From contig CAWINE010000028.1 of the NCBI GenBank assembly GCA_963837315.1, positions 470,462-534,461 of the forward strand: a stretch of DNA of 64,000 nt, given 5' to 3'. Position numbers and translations under genes: made by a program. The notes under the pieces are model-generated. The model saw only the letters and a list, made by a program, of their open reading frames with translations, had not been told where the DNA came from and searched no databases. The DNA is from an uncultured Chloroflexia bacterium (lineage in GTDB: Bacteria; Chloroflexota; Chloroflexia; QHBQ01; JADMIH01). Shown piece by piece: positions 3,594 through 49,255 of the stretch (the first letter of the stretch is position 1; every line of letters starts with the position of its first letter).

Positions 3594-4466
3594 ATGGCTC
3601 AATTTCCCGGCATCTATGTGGCACTGATTACTCCGTTCACCCAGTCAGGCGAAGTGGACTACCCACGATTGCGCGAGCACGTTGAGTGGATGATCAGCGA
3701 GGGCATACATGGCCTTGTGCCGACAGGCTCGTGCGGTGAGTATGCGGCGCTTAGCGACCAGGAGCGCGCCCAGGTGGTCGAGACGATCATCAAAACGGCG
3801 GCAGGCCGCGTGCCTGTGGTGGTCGGCACGGCCGCGCCTTCGACAGCAAAGGCGGTAGGGTGGGCGAACCACGCCAAAGAGGCCGGGGCAGCCGGTCTGA
3901 TGCTCCTCCCGCCCATCAACTATCGCCCGTCGCGCCGTGAAGTGGTGGCATGGTACGGCGCGCTTTCGCAGGTGGGTCTTCCTATTATCGCCTACAACAA
4001 CCCGTACGATACCTCCACCGACCTCACCCCCGACCTGCTGGCCGAGATAGCGCAGTTCGAGCAGGTCGTGGCGGTCAAGGAGTTTTCGGGAGACGTGCGC
4101 CGCATACCCCAGATACTGGCCGAGACGCGCCTTGAGGTGCTGGCCGGTGCCGATGACGTTGTGCTGGAAAGCCTCCTCGCAGGCGCGACCGGTTGGATAG
4201 CGGGCCTCACCAACATCCTCCCCAGGGAGAGCGTGCAACTATTCGAGCTAGGTCAAGCGGGCAAGGTGGCCGAAGCCAACGAGCTATACAGGCGGCTGCT
4301 CCCCCTCTTCCGCTTCGATGCCCAGCCGATTTTCGTCCAGGCCATCAAATATTGCTTCGAGCTGATAGGCAAACCGGTAGGCCACACCCGCGCCCCACGC
4401 CTGCCCCTCGACGAGGTCACCCGCAAGAAGGTCGAAGCAGCGTACGCGCTGGCGAGTGCAGGATGA
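3594..4466 (+). CDS. DapA (dihydrodipicolinate synthase) family lyase; candidate pyrroline-4-hydroxy-2-carboxylate deaminase (LhpC-like)
   Basis: ATG 3594 (MAQFPGIYVALITPF) follows AGGAGAG. The product has DapA-family features (GLVPTGSCGEYAALS, VAVKEFSGD). The longer ORF from 3492 lacks an SD. The functional call rests on context with the epimerase and dehydrogenase genes. Confidence 0.8.
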   Translation: MAQFPGIYVALITPFTQSGEVDYPRLREHVEWMISEGIHGLVPTGSCGEYAALSDQERAQVVETIIKTAAGRVPVVVGTAAPSTAKAVGWANHAKEAGAAGLMLLPPINYRPSRREVVAWYGALSQVGLPIIAYNNPYDTSTDLTPDLLAEIAQFEQVVAVKEFSGDVRRIPQILAETRLEVLAGADDVVLESLLAGATGWIAGLTNILPRESVQLFELGQAGKVAEANELYRRLLPLFRFDAQPIFVQAIKYCFELIGKPVGHTRAPRLPLDEVTRKKVEAAYALASAG

Positions 4467-4572
4467 TTGCGGATTGCGGATTGCATTCTTTACCGCCAAG
4501 ACGCAAAGAACGCTAAGGTTCGCCAAGGTTTTTATGGGTATAAGCAGTAAGCAGTAAGCAATAAGCGGTAGG
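4466..4572. repeat. composite short-tandem-repeat block (ATTGCGG x3; CCAAG/GCG 8-9-mers; TTTTTATGGG; AGTAAGC x3)
   Basis: The block reads gattgcggattgcggattgc, then ccgccaagacgcaaagaacgctaaggttcgccaagg, then tttttatggg, then taagcagtaagcagtaagcaataagc. Read in reverse complement, it contains the same CATAAAAACC+CTTGGCG module seen at 10060-10270 and 36255-36520. Confidence 0.8.
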
Positions 4573-9089: not shown

Positions 9090-9236
9090 CCAAGTTGTCA
9101 GTTGTCAGTTGTCAGTAGACGGACGACCGACAACCGACTAAGGCTGATAGCTGAACGCTACGGTCTACTGACAATAGTTCGCTTCGCTCATCAACTGACA
9201 ACTGACAACTGACAACTTGGTCACAAACTGACAACT
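9090..9236. repeat. nested heptamer-arm hairpins (GTTGTCA / TGACAAC runs) between mglB and mglA
   Basis: ccaagttgtcagttgtcagttgtcagtagac (9090-9120) pairs with gtctactgacaa (9163-9174) and with caactgacaactgacaactgacaacttgg (9192-9220). The element fills the mglB-mglA spacer. Confidence 0.85.
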
Positions 9237-9873: not shown

Positions 9874-10059
9874 TTGCTTGCCGCAGATGGAGTTCGCGGT
9901 CAGTTCGCGCCCATAGGGTACCTTCTCATGAGCGCAGACTTACCCAGAGATTATCGTAGCGCTGCGAACTGAGCAGAAGGATCAACCGGGAAATAAGAAC
10001 AGCACGGACAAGGTCACGGACCCAACCTGGATAAAACGTAATAACTCCCAATAAACTCT

Positions 10060-10270
10060 GTGCTCTCCATGATCTCTGAGCTCTCTCCAATTCAAACCCA
10101 TTAAAAACTTCGTGACCTTCGTCGGTCAAACCCATAAAAACCTTCGTGATCTTCGTGTCCTTCGTGCTCTTCGTGATTCAAACAATAAAGACCTTCGTGA
10201 TCTTTGTGCCTTTGTGGTTCAAACCGTAAAATCCTTGGCGTCTTGGCGTTGAAAAACGGTCGCTTCCCAG
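10060..10270. repeat. modular repeat array: TTCAAACC-N-ATAAAAAC-type separators alternating with runs of CTTCGTG / CTTTGTG / CTTGGCG / CTCTGTG 7-9-mers
   Basis: Four separators are caattcaaacccattaaaaa, ggtcaaacccataaaaac, gattcaaacaataaagac and ggttcaaaccgtaaaatc. Each is followed by 2-5 tandem short units. The array is homologous in reverse complement to 36255-36520. Confidence 0.85.
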
Positions 10271-10338
10271 CGCGAATTGCCCACCCCTCGCATCTAATGT
10301 ACAATGCAACCTGACACTACGACCGAGGAGACATACGG

Positions 10339-11997
10339 ATGCAGGAGAAACAGGCAAACAGAGCTATCAACGCGATTATCAGCGTATCAGACCCCACGAA
10401 CCTCGAGATTCTGGGCAAAGCCCTCAGTGAGATGGGCGCGAATATCTACGCAACGGGCGGCACCAAAGCGCGCCTGCAGTCGGTTGGGGTGGACGCCCAT
10501 TCCATCAGCGACCTTACCGGCTTTCCGGAAATCCTGGGCGGGCGCGTCAAGACCCTGCACCCGGGCGTCCATTCGGGCATCCTGGTCAAGCGCAACGACC
10601 CGGACCAGATGGCCCAGCTTGCGGAGCACGGCCTCAGCACAATTGAGCTTGTAGCATGCAACCTCTATCCCTTCGCAAAGACGATCGCGAAGGAGGGTGT
10701 CACGTTGGAGGAGGCGGTCGAGCAGATAGACATCGGCGGGCCCACTATGATACGCGCAGCCGCCAAGAACTTCACCTCTGTGGTAGTGCTCTCGGACCCC
10801 GCCGACTACGCAGCCGTAATGGCCGAGTGGCGCGACCGGGGCGATCTGAGCCAGGAGACACGACAAGCCCTGGCAGCCAAAGCCTTCCGCCACGTGTCGG
10901 AGTATGATGCGCTGATCGCGGAATACCTGGGCGGAATGCGGAATGGGGAATTCGGAATTCGGAATAAAGACCAACCGGGCAGCATTCCGAATTCCGAATT
11001 CCCCATTCCGCATTCAGAGGAGTTGCCGAATAGGATTACGCTCGATTTGAATAGGGTGCAAGCCCTCAGGTATGGCGAGAACCCTCACCAATCGGGGGCC
11101 CTTTACAGCGACAACTTGCCGGTGACGGGTGCAACCCTGGTGGGATCGCTCAAGCAGTTGCAGGGGCCCGAGCTGTCGTACAACAATCTGATGGACGCGG
11201 ACGCTGCGCTGGCCCTTGTACGCGACTATACAATGCCCGCTGTGGCAATTATCAAGCACGCGGGACCTTGCGGTGTGGCTTGCGGGAGCGACGGCGACGA
11301 CCTGGCGGATGTGTTCGGTATGGCGCTGGCTTCCGATCCTGTATCGGCGTTCGGAGGGATCGTGGGCATCAACAGGCCCGTGGATGGTAGGCTGGCCGAG
11401 CAGATAGGCAAAACCCGCTTCGATCTGCTAATAGCTCCCTCCTTCGATGAAGAAGCCATCGACAGGCTCGCCCGCAAGAAAAACCTCCGCTTGCTGGCCG
11501 TGCCTGACGACAATGTCAGCCGCCGCGATGACGATTTCGCGAGCAAGCTGAGTTTCCGGCAGGTGAGCGGCGGCTTCCTCGTGCAGACACGAGACGCTGT
11601 GAATTACGAAATCCTCCTGGAGCCGGCCACTCTGCGCCATCCCACACTCGAAGAGATAGCCGACCTCGTCTTCGCCTGGAGGGCCGTGCGGCACGTCCGT
11701 TCCAATGCTATCGTGTTCGCCCGTAAGCTGGCCACCGTAGGCATCGGCGGCGGCCAGACCAGCCGCGTCAATTCGGTAAAGATTGCAGCCGAAAAGGCAG
11801 GCGACCGCGCCAGGGGCGCAGTAATGGCCTCAGACGCCTTTTTCCCTTTCCCCGACGGAGTTGAGGTGGCGGCAGCAGCAGGCGTCACCGCCGTGATACA
11901 GCCGGGAGGCTCGGTCAACGACGACGCCGTCATAGAGGCCGCCGACACGGCCGGCATTGCGATGGTCTTTACGAAGAGAAGGCATTTCAGGCATTAG
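10339..11997 (+). CDS. purH: bifunctional AICAR formyltransferase / IMP cyclohydrolase
   Basis: 552 aa with an MGS-like N-domain (ISVSDPTNL...GGRVKTLHPGVHSGIL, IDIGGPTMIRAAAKN) and an AICARFT domain (LRYGENPHQ, ELSYNNLMDADAA, VIQPGGSVNDD...FTKRRHFRH). SD GAGGAG precedes the ATG. Confidence 0.95.
   Translation: MQEKQANRAINAIISVSDPTNLEILGKALSEMGANIYATGGTKARLQSVGVDAHSISDLTGFPEILGGRVKTLHPGVHSGILVKRNDPDQMAQLAEHGLSTIELVACNLYPFAKTIAKEGVTLEEAVEQIDIGGPTMIRAAAKNFTSVVVLSDPADYAAVMAEWRDRGDLSQETRQALAAKAFRHVSEYDALIAEYLGGMRNGEFGIRNKDQPGSIPNSEFPIPHSEELPNRITLDLNRVQALRYGENPHQSGALYSDNLPVTGATLVGSLKQLQGPELSYNNLMDADAALALVRDYTMPAVAIIKHAGPCGVACGSDGDDLADVFGMALASDPVSAFGGIVGINRPVDGRLAEQIGKTRFDLLIAPSFDEEAIDRLARKKNLRLLAVPDDNVSRRDDDFASKLSFRQVSGGFLVQTRDAVNYEILLEPATLRHPTLEEIADLVFAWRAVRHVRSNAIVFARKLATVGIGGGQTSRVNSVKIAAEKAGDRARGAVMASDAFFPFPDGVEVAAAAGVTAVIQPGGSVNDDAVIEAADTAGIAMVFTKRRHFRH
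10934..11015. repeat. perfect 32-bp-stem / 18-nt-loop heptamer-arm hairpin lying in frame inside purH
   Basis: Arm 10934-10965 is gaatgcggaatggggaattcggaattcggaat. Arm 10984-11015 is its exact reverse complement. The element translates as MRNGEFGIRNKDQPGSIPNSEFPIPHS in the inter-domain linker. Confidence 0.9.
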
Positions 11998-34473: not shown

Positions 34474-36247
34474 TCACCCCTCAAACGCCACCCGTACCAC
34501 TTTCGCCCGAATCTCTTCCTCCATCTCCGCAATCTCTCTTTTCAAGCGCTGAATCACCTCTTCGATCGCCACTATTGCTGTTTGAGTTGAATCTCGCCGC
34601 TTTAGCTCGGCCCCGCCCTGCGCCAGCGAGCGGTCGCCAAGTGTCAGCCGCAAAGGTATACCTATGAGGTCGGCGTCATTGAACTTGACGCCCGCCGAGC
34701 CTTCGCGGTCGTCGTAAAGCACCTCGATCCCGACCGCCTGCATATCGCTGTAGAGTTTCTCGGCTGCCATGCGCGCAGGCCCGTCATCCTTTGCTAGCGA
34801 AACGAGATGCACCTGGTAGGGCGCAATGGTGATAGGCCACACCAGCCCCCGCTCGTCGTTGTGCGCCTCGGCGACACAGGCCAGCAGCCGTCCAACCCCG
34901 ATTCCATAGGAGCCCATTATTATGCTCTTCTGCTTGCCATCGTTGTCCAGGTAGACGGCACCCAGTGCATCGCTGTATCGAGTGCCAAGCTTGAAGATGT
35001 TGCCTGCTTCTACTCCGCCCGAAAGGTGCAGAGGCGCAGCCGCAGCTCGGGCAAGCATCGCCCTCTTTGGCCGCGGCGATGTCCGCCACCAGGTCAGCTT
35101 TGTAGTCTCGCCCGTAATTCACGTTGATGTAGTGGTACCCGACCTCGTTGGCCCCGGCCACCAGGTTGGGCGACTGAGCCACGGCGTCGTCAACCACAAC
35201 CAGCGCATCTTTCACGCCGATGGGCGAGCCGTAGCCTGGCTGGGCACCTCTCGAAGTTATCTCCTCCTCCTGGGCAGGGCGCAGCTCCATGGCTTTCACG
35301 ACGTTCGCCAGCTTGGTCTCGTTCACGTCCATATCGCCGCGCACCACGGCGAACACGAATTGTTCCCTCTCGGTCTCGCCTTCTCGTAACTTCGCCACCA
35401 TGAACACCGCCTTGGCAGTCTTCGAGGCCGGGATATCGAGGAACCGGGCCAGGGCGTCAATGGTGGTCGACGCCAGGCGTGGCGACCTTCTCCATAGGCT
35501 TCGGCTCCTCTGTGCGGCGCGACCGGCTTGCGAAATAGTGCCACCTGCCTGTTGGCCGAATATCCGCAGTTGTCGCACAGCACCAGCGTATCTTCGCCGA
35601 TCGGGGTCAGGTACATGAACTCGTGCGCCAGGCTCCCGCCCATCATCCCGACATCCGACTTCACGGCGATCACCGGCAGGGCGCAGCGGTTGAAGATATT
35701 GAAATACGCCTGGTAATGCGCCCGGTACTGCTTATCGAGCCCTTCCAGATCGGCGTCCAGGCTGTAGCTATCGAGCATAGTGAACTCGCGGGCGCGTATC
35801 AGCCCGGCGCGCGGCCTGGGGTCGTCGCGCCACTTGGTCTGGATGTGGTAGATAAGCTGGGGCAATTGCCTGTACGATCTTATCTCTTTGCGGGCCAGGT
35901 CGGTCACGACCTCTTCGTGGGTCATCGCCAGCGCCATATCGCGCCCCGTTTTCTCCACAAAGCGCCCAAGCTCCGGCCCAATCGAGTACCAGCGTCCCGT
36001 CTCCTTCCAGAGATCGGCAGGGTGCACGACAGGCATAGTCATCTCCTGCCCGCCCAGCGCGTTGATCTCCTCGCGCATAATATTCTCGATCTTGGTCATC
36101 GAGCGCCTGGCCAAGGGGCAAATAGCTGAAAATGCCCGCCGCCAATTGCCTGACAAATCCCGCCCTCAACAGCAGCCTGTGGCTCGCCACCTCCGCCTCC
36201 GACGGCGCCTCGCGCAAGGTCTGGCTGAATAACTGGCTCATTCTCAT
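34474..36247 (-). pseudogene. proS: proline--tRNA ligase (bacterial type with INS editing domain), at least four frameshifts
   Basis: [46 protein letters not shown] runs from 36247. The sequence then passes through the frame of ORF 35323-36156 (motifs 1-2: ...[23 protein letters not shown]...), a short EEPKPMEKVATPGVD segment, the frame of ORF 34784-35578 (editing domain), and the frame of ORF 34474-35058 (GNIFKLGTRYS...MGSYGIGVGRLL...anticodon-binding domain). Confidence 0.85.
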
Positions 36248-36254
36248 TGGTTAC

Positions 36255-36520
36255 GTTTCTACTTCTTACTTCTTACTTCTTCAACGCCAAGACGCCAAGA
36301 CGCCAAGGTTTTTAACGGTTTGAACCACAAAGACACGAAGAGCACAAAGTTCACGAAGGGTATTATGGGTTTGAATTGCAGCGATCACGGAGTACTCAGA
36401 GATCACAGAGGATATTATGGTTCAACCCCCATAAATAATCTTGGCGAGCCTTGGCGTTCTTGGCGTCTTCGAAAAACCGTCGTCCGTCTACCGACAACTG
36501 ACAACTGACAACTGACAACT
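36255..36520. repeat. modular repeat array, reverse-complement homolog of 10060-10270, lying between the T-box terminator and the proS start
   Basis: On the minus strand it reads cagttgtcag x4, cgccaag units, ggttgaaccataata, CTCTGTGATCTCTGAG..., caattcaaacccataatac, CTTCGTG/CTTTGTG units, ggttcaaaccgttaaaaac, CTTGGCGT x3, and agtaaga x3. Confidence 0.85.
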
Positions 36521-36522
36521 GG

Positions 36523-36795
36523 CACAAAAAACGCCCCCGCCCCGGTCAAGGGACGAGAGCATGAATCACTCCCGCGGTACCACCCTGATTGTCACATTTG
36601 TGGCCTGTGACCGCTCCTGGTTATTGCTTGCGTGGGAACCGCCCACTCCATCCTACTTGCTCGACCTTGAGCTTTCTTCGGCGGACCGCTCGGTGGCGGG
36701 TTCGTCGCGGCAGGTGTTGCCGGGCTTGCACTCTCTCCGGTTCGCTGTAACCCTTGCTGCGCTTACTATTCCACTTCAACGCGGGCATATTCGAT
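36523..36795 (-). promoter_or_regulatory. T-box leader (tRNA-sensing riboswitch) with a CCC (Pro) specifier, upstream of proS
   Basis: Minus-strand elements, given in plus-strand coordinates:
- GTTGAAG..AATAGTA (stem I base)
- AGAGAG bulge (36731-36736)
- specifier GAA-CCC-G (codon at 36698-36700)
- AAGTAGG, and the T-box sequence AATCAGGGTGGTACCGCGGG (36571-36590)
- terminator CTCTCGTCCC-TTGACC-GGGGCGGGGG followed by CGTTTTTTGT (36525-36560). Confidence 0.8.
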
Positions 36796-36953: not shown

Positions 36954-37659
36954 ATGCTCTCCGACCAATCCGCAATCCGCAATCCGCAATCCGCAATCCA
37001 TATCGTTCCTTCAATCCTCTCAGCCGACTTCGCCCGGCTGGGCGAGCAGGTGCAGGAGGCTGTGAAGGCCGGGGCGGGGCGTATCCAGGTGGACGTCATG
37101 GACGGCCATTACGTGCCCAACATCACGGTCGGTCCGGTTGTGCTCGCTGCAATCCGCCCTTATTGCTCCGTGCCCATAGAGTGCCACTTGATGATCGAGC
37201 ACCCTGAGGCTTTTATCCATGATTTCGCCGAAGCGGGAGCCGACATCATCATCGTCCACGTCGAAACGGCTCCGCACCTGCACCGCGTTGTCCAGCAAAT
37301 CCGCGCCGAGGGCAAAGGCGTGGGGGTGGCTCTCGAATCCATCCACGCCGCTGGTGGACCTCGAAGAAATCCTGGAATATATCGATATGGCCCTCGTCAT
37401 GACCGTCAACCCCGGCTTCGGCGGGCAGGAATTCATCTATTCGATGCTGCCCAAAATCAGCCGCCTTCGCGCAACTATCCAGGAGCGCGGCCTCCACTGC
37501 GACATCGAAGTGGATGGCGGCATCCATGAAGGCACAATCCGCCAGGCAGTCCAGGCGGGCGCGAACCTGCTGGTCGCGGGGTCCGCCGTCTATGATGCGC
37601 CCGACGGTGTAGAAGCCGCGATGCAGCGGCTCCGCTCCGCTATAGAGGAACCCAAATGA
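36954..37659 (+). pseudogene. rpe: ribulose-phosphate 3-epimerase, one frameshift
   Basis: [40 protein letters not shown] and IIIVHVE are in ORF 36954-37529. [32 protein letters not shown]...DIEVDGGI...LVAGSAVY are in ORF 37219-37659. The junction is at about 37335. The N-terminus reads through (CCGCAAT)x4. Confidence 0.85.
36962..36999. repeat. (CCGCAAT)x4 run inside the annotated rpe 5' end
   Basis: ccgaccaatccgcaatccgcaatccgcaatccgcaatcc. Confidence 0.85.
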
Positions 37660-48974: not shown

Positions 48975-49255
48975 TGGTTTTGGGGACACCCCAAGCCCCG
49001 GCAGGGAGATCCCTGCACCCCCTTTTGTCGCCAACTTGTTAGTAATGGAGGTATTTTGGGGACACCCCAAGCCCCGGCAGGGAGCCCCTGCACCCCCTCT
49101 CCACGATAGCCTGTTAGAGAATAGAGGGAGTATTGGGGACACCCCAAGCCCCGGCAGGGGAGCGCCCCTGCACTGCTTCTTCACCATGGCCTGTTAGAGA
49201 ACAAGAGATACTGGGGACGCCCAAGCCCTGGCAGGGACCTCCAGGCACCCCTTCC
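48975..49255. repeat. array of four GGGGACACCCC...CAGGG-N-CCCTG...CACCCC elements (period ~75-78 bp)
   Basis: Copies lie at about 48982-49022, 49056-49096, 49134-49177 and 49213-49250 (the last degenerate). The family and orientation match 6339-6530. Confidence 0.85.

Follow-up and report, generated by a model that had tools for sequence, protein, structure and literature searches.

A short-repeat array upstream of purH is probably a decayed copy of a gene-less mosaic element with the ends of a GxxExxY cassette

Introduction

Short conserved segments that alternate with blocks of tandem repeats lie immediately upstream of purH in the stretch of DNA analysed here (64,000 nucleotides from an uncultured Chloroflexia bacterium, hereafter the window), and an array of similar build lies in reverse orientation in front of proS. 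The question raised by this locus is what these arrays are and whether they serve the genes beside which they stand. An earlier note on the same DNA had described a separator of about 18 bp alternating with variable blocks, in inverted copies at the two genes, and had called the layout superficially similar to a small CRISPR array. The genome is a 5.44-Mb metagenome-type assembly of a soil bacterium (58% G+C, 84% complete) with apparent frameshifts, so small differences in unit count may include sequencing error.

Layout of the arrays in the window

Unit-by-unit annotation bears out the modular description, with a conserved separator of ~17-18 nt alternating with blocks of tandem 7-9-mers. Copy 1 (10056-10262, + strand) opens with a C block of CTCTGTG and CTCTGAG units (10056-10088). 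Separator 1, AATTCAAACCCATTAAAAA (10089-10107), which is the gene-proximal inner flank of a cassette right arm as described below, leads into two CTTCGTG units (B2, 10108-10123). The separator GGTCAAACCCATAAAAAC (10124-10141) then introduces four CTTCGTG units (B4, 10142-10175), ATTCAAACAATAAAGAC (10176-10192) introduces one CTTCGTG and two CTTTGTG units (B1b2, 10193-10216), and GTTCAAACCGTAAAATC (10217-10233) introduces two CTTGGCG units (A2, 10234-10248), followed by TTGAAAAACGGTCG. Tandem Repeats Finder reported periods of 8 and 9 nt in the flagged arrays and also two longer ones, 34 and 51, which reflect whole modules. In copy 1 one module has been doubled by a whole-module tandem duplication of period 34, the left CGCCAAG arm is deleted, and no hairpin is formed (DNA fold z=+0.37). 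The family profile described below matches this copy in two pieces by nhmmer, at 10049-10122 (hmm 58-133) and 10126-10257 (hmm 103-235, E=2.5e-41).

Copy 2 (36285-36465, - strand) is a near full-length mosaic (hmm 8-234, E=8e-43). Read on its own strand, it consists of three CGCCAAG units (a3, 36465-36440), the inner flank ATTATTTATGGGGGTTGAACC (36439-36419), a C block (36410-36377) with a separator next to it, a fused B/b block of mixed CTTCGTG and CTTTGTG units (36358-36326), a further separator (36325-36308) and three CTTGGCG units (A3, 36307-36285). Its a arm pairs with its A arm in the predicted RNA fold (-81.7 kcal/mol). On its 5' side stands an outer heptamer shell of four CAGTTGT units and GGTAGACGGACGACGGTTTTTCGAAG (36467-36521, - strand), the mirror image of the family's usual right flank. 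The reverse strand of copy 2 thus carries ordered modules that match those of copy 1, as the earlier note had stated. The order is indeed the same, and the difference in counts extends to whole modules, copy 2 lying one below the family consensus and copy 1 one above it.

The third fragment of the earlier note is also present. It is a lone left arm (CGCCAAG, CGCAAAG, CGCTAAG, CGCCAAG) with its inner flank GTTTTTATGGGT at 4494-4539 (+ strand; hmm 2-57, E=1e-9), framed by the heptamer arrays GATTGCG x3 (4465-4484) and TAAGCAG x4 (4541-4570). The flanks of copies 1 and 2 are unrelated to each other.

Two further repeats occur in the window. At 9093-9217 there is a gene-less hairpin of H type, with AGTTGTC x3 and GTAGACGGACGACCG on one side and CGGTCTAC and TGACAAC x4 on the other; its right arm is broken by a small palindromic insert, ATAGTTCGCTTCGCTCATC, that recurs in several mosaics in other parts of the genome. 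At 48981-49236 lies a separate repeat, made of 3.3 copies of a 77-bp unit based on GGGGACACCCCAAGCCCCGGCAGGG...CCCTGCACCCCC, and a similar motif is found in the relative G004.

A family of mosaic elements across the genome

The separator is present elsewhere in the genome; its absence there was part of what, by the earlier note, would have refuted the claim. The pattern TTCAAACC(N1-2)TAAAA occurs 62 times in 5.44 Mb, against ~0.09 occurrences expected from base composition, and the recurrence of the module is therefore far beyond chance. Matches to CTTCGTGNNCTTCGTGNNCTTCGTG number 227, and the same pattern reversed, used as a control, has none. An iterated nhmmer search started from one full copy returned 486 matches, which merged into 290 loci totalling 46 kb, or ~0.85% of the genome; the surrounding heptamer shells add more. 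The inverted copies at purH and proS are real as sequences, but they are not a private pair, being two of ~290 copies. A single segmental duplication joining the purH and proS regions, for which the similarity of copies 1 and 2 speaks and nothing more, is refuted by this copy number and also conflicts with the unrelated flanks.

Near full-length mosaics number 93 and measure 173-293 bp (median 225), for a family element of ~240 bp. When the loci were tokenised, all 93 showed the module order a4-C-[M]-B-b/d-A: four CGCCAAG units, one to four CTCTGNG units, an optional 33-nt unit M, three to seven CTTCGTG units, a b3 or d3 block (CTTTGTG or CTTGGTG) and one to four CTTGGCG units. An A-rich separator precedes every right-hand block. 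The terminal inverted repeats are the arms CGCCAAG x3-4 and CTTGGCG x2-4, and in 85 of the 93 full copies the two pair with each other (mean z against shuffles -6.6). Block lengths differ between copies, as had been noted for the two arrays: across the 93, CTTCGTG is present in 0-7 units (mode 4), CTCTGNG in 0-5 and CTTGGCG in 0-4, and copy 1 has its duplicated module. This is the pattern expected of slippage and unequal exchange.

The insert M, CATGAGCGGGGTGCCCTCTGGGCCGCGAACT, occurs 53 times genome-wide. Its position within CTCTGCG/CTCTGTG arrays is almost constant, including the right arm of the intact GxxExxY cassette on contig C17, and 12 full mosaics carry it at one identical place. An inverted and diverged copy of M lies at 9900-9935.

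Most mosaics sit within further heptamer arrays, with ACGTAAA units directly to the left and often an outer shell of GTTGTCA...GTAGACG / CGTCTAC...TGACAAC. Alignment of the flanks of the 93 copies at both ends showed other heptamer arrays and no consistent target-site duplication, and no clean insertion boundary could be defined from them, which counts against a mobile reading. The same is true of pairwise identity among the 93 copies (mean 81%, range 62-93%): no pair exceeds 93%, and nothing therefore points to very recent copying.

In sequencing run X2, depth over the repeat is ~100 times the depth of the flanks, which fits a multi-copy repeat but is uninformative as to length polymorphism. 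The public runs yielded only fragmentary soil-metagenome contigs, none spanning the element, and a search of metagenome contigs for close strains with PurH as query gave a best match of 57% identity. An exact look-up of the PurH sequence found no record. An exact scan of 596 Gb of genome contigs with the 15-mer GTGGTTCAAMCCGTA, a pattern too short for the purpose, gave chance single matches in unrelated taxa.

A miniature CRISPR-like or small-RNA array, in which the separators are the repeats and the blocks are the spacers, would account for the alternation of conserved and variable segments, and that visual resemblance is its sole support. CRISPR arrays consist of identical direct repeats of 23-50 bp and unique spacers of similar length. 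Here, in contrast, the conserved segment is ~17 nt, the blocks are tandem 8-9-mers common to hundreds of loci, and no locus has more than about five separators. The 84% complete assembly contains no match to Cas1 (PF01867), no cas-like ORFs stand beside copies 1 and 2, and no Rfam family other than the T-box was matched. The CRISPR comparison is thus effectively refuted beyond its appearance.

Modules resemble the arms of GxxExxY cassettes

The point missed by the earlier note is that each module corresponds to the inverted-repeat arm of a gene cassette. The genome contains three PF13366/TIGR04256 GxxExxY loci (two intact, one broken) and three PF05635 four-helix-bundle loci, two of which are partial matches. 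Complementary arrays of tandem 7-9-mers flank all six, and in the PF05635 loci (3/3) these are heptamer arrays on both sides. The intact cassette C26:21823-22170 has CGCCAAG/CTTGGCG arms (A type), the broken C22 cassette CACGAAG/CTTCGTG arms (B type), and the C17 cassette CGCAGAG/CTCTGCG arms (C type). An arm is built from an A-rich inner flank, that is the separator, three to four tandem 8-9-mers and a GGTGAA/GGTTAA end.

In all three GxxExxY cassettes the stop codon of the gene is followed first by the separator motif and then by the array, so that one module equals one right-hand cassette arm. Every module of copies 1 and 2 has this flank-plus-array build, and neither copy contains a gene. 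Each separator with its repeat block is thus one complete right-hand arm of the GxxExxY inverted repeats. The mosaic as a whole is an A-type cassette shell, its ends sharing almost the same 55 nt with the intact C26 cassette, and the place of the nuclease gene is taken by three orphan right arms, of the CTCTGTG, CTTCGTG and CTTTGTG types.

The association of gene and arms extends to other genera of the order. Complementary flanking arms of tandem 8-9-mers are present at 36 of 36 GxxExxY loci, comprising the three of this genome and 33 further loci from five genera of the same bacterial order, with inverted-repeat scores of 38-124 against a shuffled maximum of at most 31. At least nine arm unit sequences are represented (CTCTGCG, CTCCGTG, CTCTGTG, CTTTGTG, CTTCGTG, CTTGGCG, CTTTGCG, TTTCGTG and ATCCGCT). 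The left and right arms of a cassette mirror one another down to irregular details, and protein clade and arm type go together. The nearest GxxExxY homologues bear the name "Chloroflexia bacterium". Outside the order results are mixed: a homologue named Blastocatellia by NCBI has CGCCAAG/CTTGGCG arms, and a Gloeocapsa-type homologue has a degenerate right arm only.

The function of PF13366 is listed as "Unknown" (PMC3424549). A PDB sequence search with the GxxExxY protein of C26, a PD-(D/E)XK nuclease, found no solved relative. No description of the mosaic family or of the GxxExxY arms could be found in the literature. To our knowledge, the GxxExxY nuclease has never been demonstrated to move anything, which counts against a mobile reading.

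Proposed copying through the A-type ends

The flagged array is a decayed member of the ~240-bp gene-less mosaic family, which has multiplied to ~290 loci, and the combination of terminal arms, fixed module order and copy number points to non-autonomous selfish DNA with A-type cassette ends; a probability of roughly 60% is assigned to this reading. The mosaic may be copied as one unit by way of its A-type ends, probably by the same agent that moves the cassettes, for which the GxxExxY nuclease is a candidate. Unit and module numbers would then drift through replication slippage and unequal exchange between the common separators. Long palindromes, being unstable, may shed arms, which would account for a copy 1 with neither left arm nor hairpin.

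The distribution of arrays in this genome bears on this proposal. A complementary partner within 700 bp was found for only 2 of 174 CTTCGTG arrays, against 154 of 289 CTTGGCG arrays and 319 of 494 ACTGACA arrays. The CTTCGTG arrays are almost partnerless, which argues that the inner modules are orphans travelling inside an A-type shell. There are 227 triple arrays of CTTCGTG in this genome and 0-1 in each of 18 congeners. Three of those congeners have intact cassettes of CTTCGTG type and still carry only 0-1 such arrays, which removes the idea that a cognate nuclease drives its own arm type as an explanation for the CTTCGTG module. Two genomes from other genera of the order, G028 and G029, have 37 and 20 CTTCGTG triple arrays, which indicates independent expansions of that unit.

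The seven congeneric genomes with an A-type cassette contain 12-176 triple arrays of CTTGGCG, and the 12 without one contain 0-31, a difference with a Mann-Whitney p=3e-4 that ignores phylogeny and is confounded by shared ancestry. The relatives G004 and G005 count against the association, with 29-31 A-type arrays and no A-type cassette detected in assemblies that are 91-93% complete. No relative has a mosaic match longer than ~85 nt. Simpler forms are found there instead, namely plain hairpins, lone arms and two arms in series.

Gain, loss and replacement among relatives

The proS locus of the closest relative, G004, has the T-box, the terminator and the CAGTTGT array, and lacks the mosaic. 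From the CAGTTGT array to the proS ATG the distance is ~95 nt in G004 and ~275 nt here, where the mosaic is included. A heptamer array stands at the same position before the proS start in both genomes, as GCAGTAC x3 in G004 and GAAGTAA x3 here, so all of its units have changed together. The upstream boundary of purH carries heptamer arrays in G004 and nothing in four other congeners. The contigs G004:C29, G012:C91 and G001:C8 stop 195-593 bp upstream of purH; the G004:C29 end falls inside heptamer arrays, an instance of these repeats fragmenting short-read assemblies.

Cassettes also change at a fixed place. One syntenic site in two sister genomes is occupied by GxxExxY cassettes at G007:C9:37811-38158 and G009:C79:3081-3431, whose proteins are 52% identical and whose arm units are CTTTGCG and CTCTGCG, whereas another cassette common to the two genomes is 95% identical. 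The difference at the site is cassette replacement and not drift. Evolution of the arms in situ as the sole source of diversity is excluded for this site, downstream of the ...GAGAAGGACAAGTAA gene, since the sisters have unrelated cassettes there.

These comparisons also bear on a reading in which nothing moves. Microsatellite-like slippage at many intergenic sites, with gene conversion between loci, could generate the arrays locally, the cassette arms being one such place. The concerted change of units before proS agrees with it, as do the wide variation of unit counts and the absence of target-site duplications and of near-identical copies among the mosaics. It does not readily explain how 93 or more unlinked loci came by five modules in a fixed order, idiosyncratic spacers and a common 33-nt insert, which would be hard to achieve without copying of the whole unit. 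Moreover, the CTTCGTG arrays occur only inside the mosaic, in fixed orientation, and are absent from 18 congeners. Purely local slippage is accordingly considered improbable.

With these results taken together, a broader proposal can be put forward tentatively, at lower confidence than the mosaic reading itself. GxxExxY genes with their tandem-repeat arms may form an undescribed kind of mobile cassette that swaps at fixed sites and whose arms diversify yet stay complementary. Such cassettes may shed gene-less shells that multiply in the manner of MITEs through the arms of one cassette type, carrying orphan arms of other types with them.

The purH and proS contexts

Copy 1 ends ~15 bp upstream of a purH promoter-like site, TTGCCC-17-TACAAT (10277-10305, + strand), a motif conserved upstream of purH in relatives. 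The coding sequence of purH itself contains, at 10931-11015, a perfect hairpin of heptamers (GCGGAATGCGGAATGGGGAATTCGGAATTCGGAAT ... ATTCCGAATTCCGAATTCCCCATTCCGCATTC) that keeps the frame and adds ~30 residues (GGMRNGEFGIRNKDQPGSIPNSEFPIPHSEE) to the AICARFT domain, which has 346 residues over 311 profile positions.

The proS gene is preceded by a T-box leader (36546-36788, - strand; RF00230, full model 1-219) with a terminator at 36531-36562 that consists of a stem of 13 pairs and a T run. The T-box match (69 bits, E=8.4e-15) was obtained at a relaxed threshold and lies below the gathering score of 93; at gathering thresholds the window contains no Rfam match, and at the relaxed threshold the T-box alone. 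This leader is conserved in G004. The T-box and its terminator precede copy 2, which places the copy inside the 5' untranslated leader of proS. The GAAGTAA x3 array (36260-36281, - strand) lies between copy 2 and the proS ATG (36247). The outer shell of copy 2 contains, at 36479-36498 (- strand), a weak terminator-like hairpin with a T run behind it (GTTGTCGGTAGACGGACGAC GGTTTTTCGA); this hairpin lies between the T-box terminator and the proS start.

Two reading frames of this region are broken. The proS gene (35323-36247, - strand) falls into two frames that overlap near 36126-36156, and the ORF of the ribulose-phosphate 3-epimerase gene rpe (36954-37529) covers 113 of 198 profile positions. 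These breaks are either indel errors of the assembly or signs of pseudogenes.

The positions of the copies invite a reading in which the element serves the host, as a REP/BIME-like mRNA stabiliser, a terminator or attenuator, an RNase III site or a protein-binding array that tunes purH and proS. Almost all copies are intergenic, with ~78% of the 166 substantial ones clear of crude ORFs, and full copies form long stems. Copy 2 is necessarily transcribed within the proS leader, with the weak terminator-like hairpin in its shell, and copy 1 adjoins the -35 site of purH. Against this, the substantial mosaics show no bias relative to the downstream gene (90 co-oriented, 76 opposite) and no excess at convergent gene pairs (16%, with 19% at divergent pairs). 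A strand-specific function finds no support in this orientation test. The proS leader of G004 is the same without the element, relatives have different repeats before purH or none, copy 1 is without its hairpin, and a single phased binding protein is hard to reconcile with periods of 7, 8 and 9 bp. A host-serving element is therefore unlikely. Random orientation, a copy 1 without structure and a copy 2 that keeps its a/A stem lead to both copies being read as passengers, most likely tolerated ones and not regulators, although they may have side effects on the expression of purH and proS.

Relation to known repeat systems

The mosaic family recalls the BIME/REP elements (REPIN) of Proteobacteria, which are likewise mosaic, extragenic and hairpin-forming, occur hundreds of times, and connect short repeat units in fixed order through a few conserved linkers. 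The usual view of BIME/REP elements is that they are non-autonomous relatives of a gene with these repeats on either side. The units differ, however, since those of BIME/REP are alternating ~35-bp palindromes, whereas the mosaic consists of one-orientation tandem arrays of 8-9-mers inside an outer inverted pair. The associated genes also differ, being a RAYT Y1 transposase in one case and a PD-(D/E)XK GxxExxY protein in the other. No RAYT gene flanked by repeats was found in this genome; a lone partial match to PF01797 (Y1_Tnp) at C11:81778-81999, an IS200/IS605-like fragment, has no repeats of the family within 500 bp.

The mosaic also resembles MITEs in being small (~240 bp), gene-less and multi-copy, and in having terminal inverted repeats that recur at the ends of an element of this genome that does carry a gene. 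Unlike MITEs, it has no definable target-site duplication, its gene-bearing parent encodes a PD-(D/E)XK nuclease and no recognised transposase, and its interior consists of orphan arms of sister cassettes in place of a deleted transposase.

The heptamer arrays on either side of the mosaic (ACTGACA, ACGTAAA, AATCCGC and others) are short tandem 7-mers at many intergenic sites, as are the STRR heptanucleotide repeats of heterocystous cyanobacteria, which have been used for fingerprinting (PMC5088731). They differ in phylum and in unit sequence. Here the arrays form complementary arms or nested shells that surround, or derive from, small genes, an arrangement that was not found described for STRR.

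Intervening sequences of 23S rRNA with an S23p, or four-helix-bundle, ORF, for instance in Coxiella (PMC4990558), likewise place a small ORF within stem-forming inverted repeats. The three PF05635 loci of this genome resemble them in their complementary heptamer arrays, and the H-type array (GTTGTCA/TGACAAC) is also the outer shell of many mosaics. The elements described here, in contrast, lie outside rRNA, the flagged copies have no ORF, and the inner modules of the mosaic come from arms of GxxExxY and not of S23p type.

Implications

For annotation, there is no need to treat the purH and proS arrays as regulatory, and repeats of the mosaic type break short-read assemblies. If the mobile-cassette proposal is true, the module of separator and short repeats would be the cis-acting end of the system. 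Should the link to the nuclease hold, it would provide the first biological context for a very large protein family (~8000 candidates in one search) and a Chloroflexota counterpart to REP-RAYT, as well as a natural system in which complementary tandem-repeat arms undergo concerted evolution.
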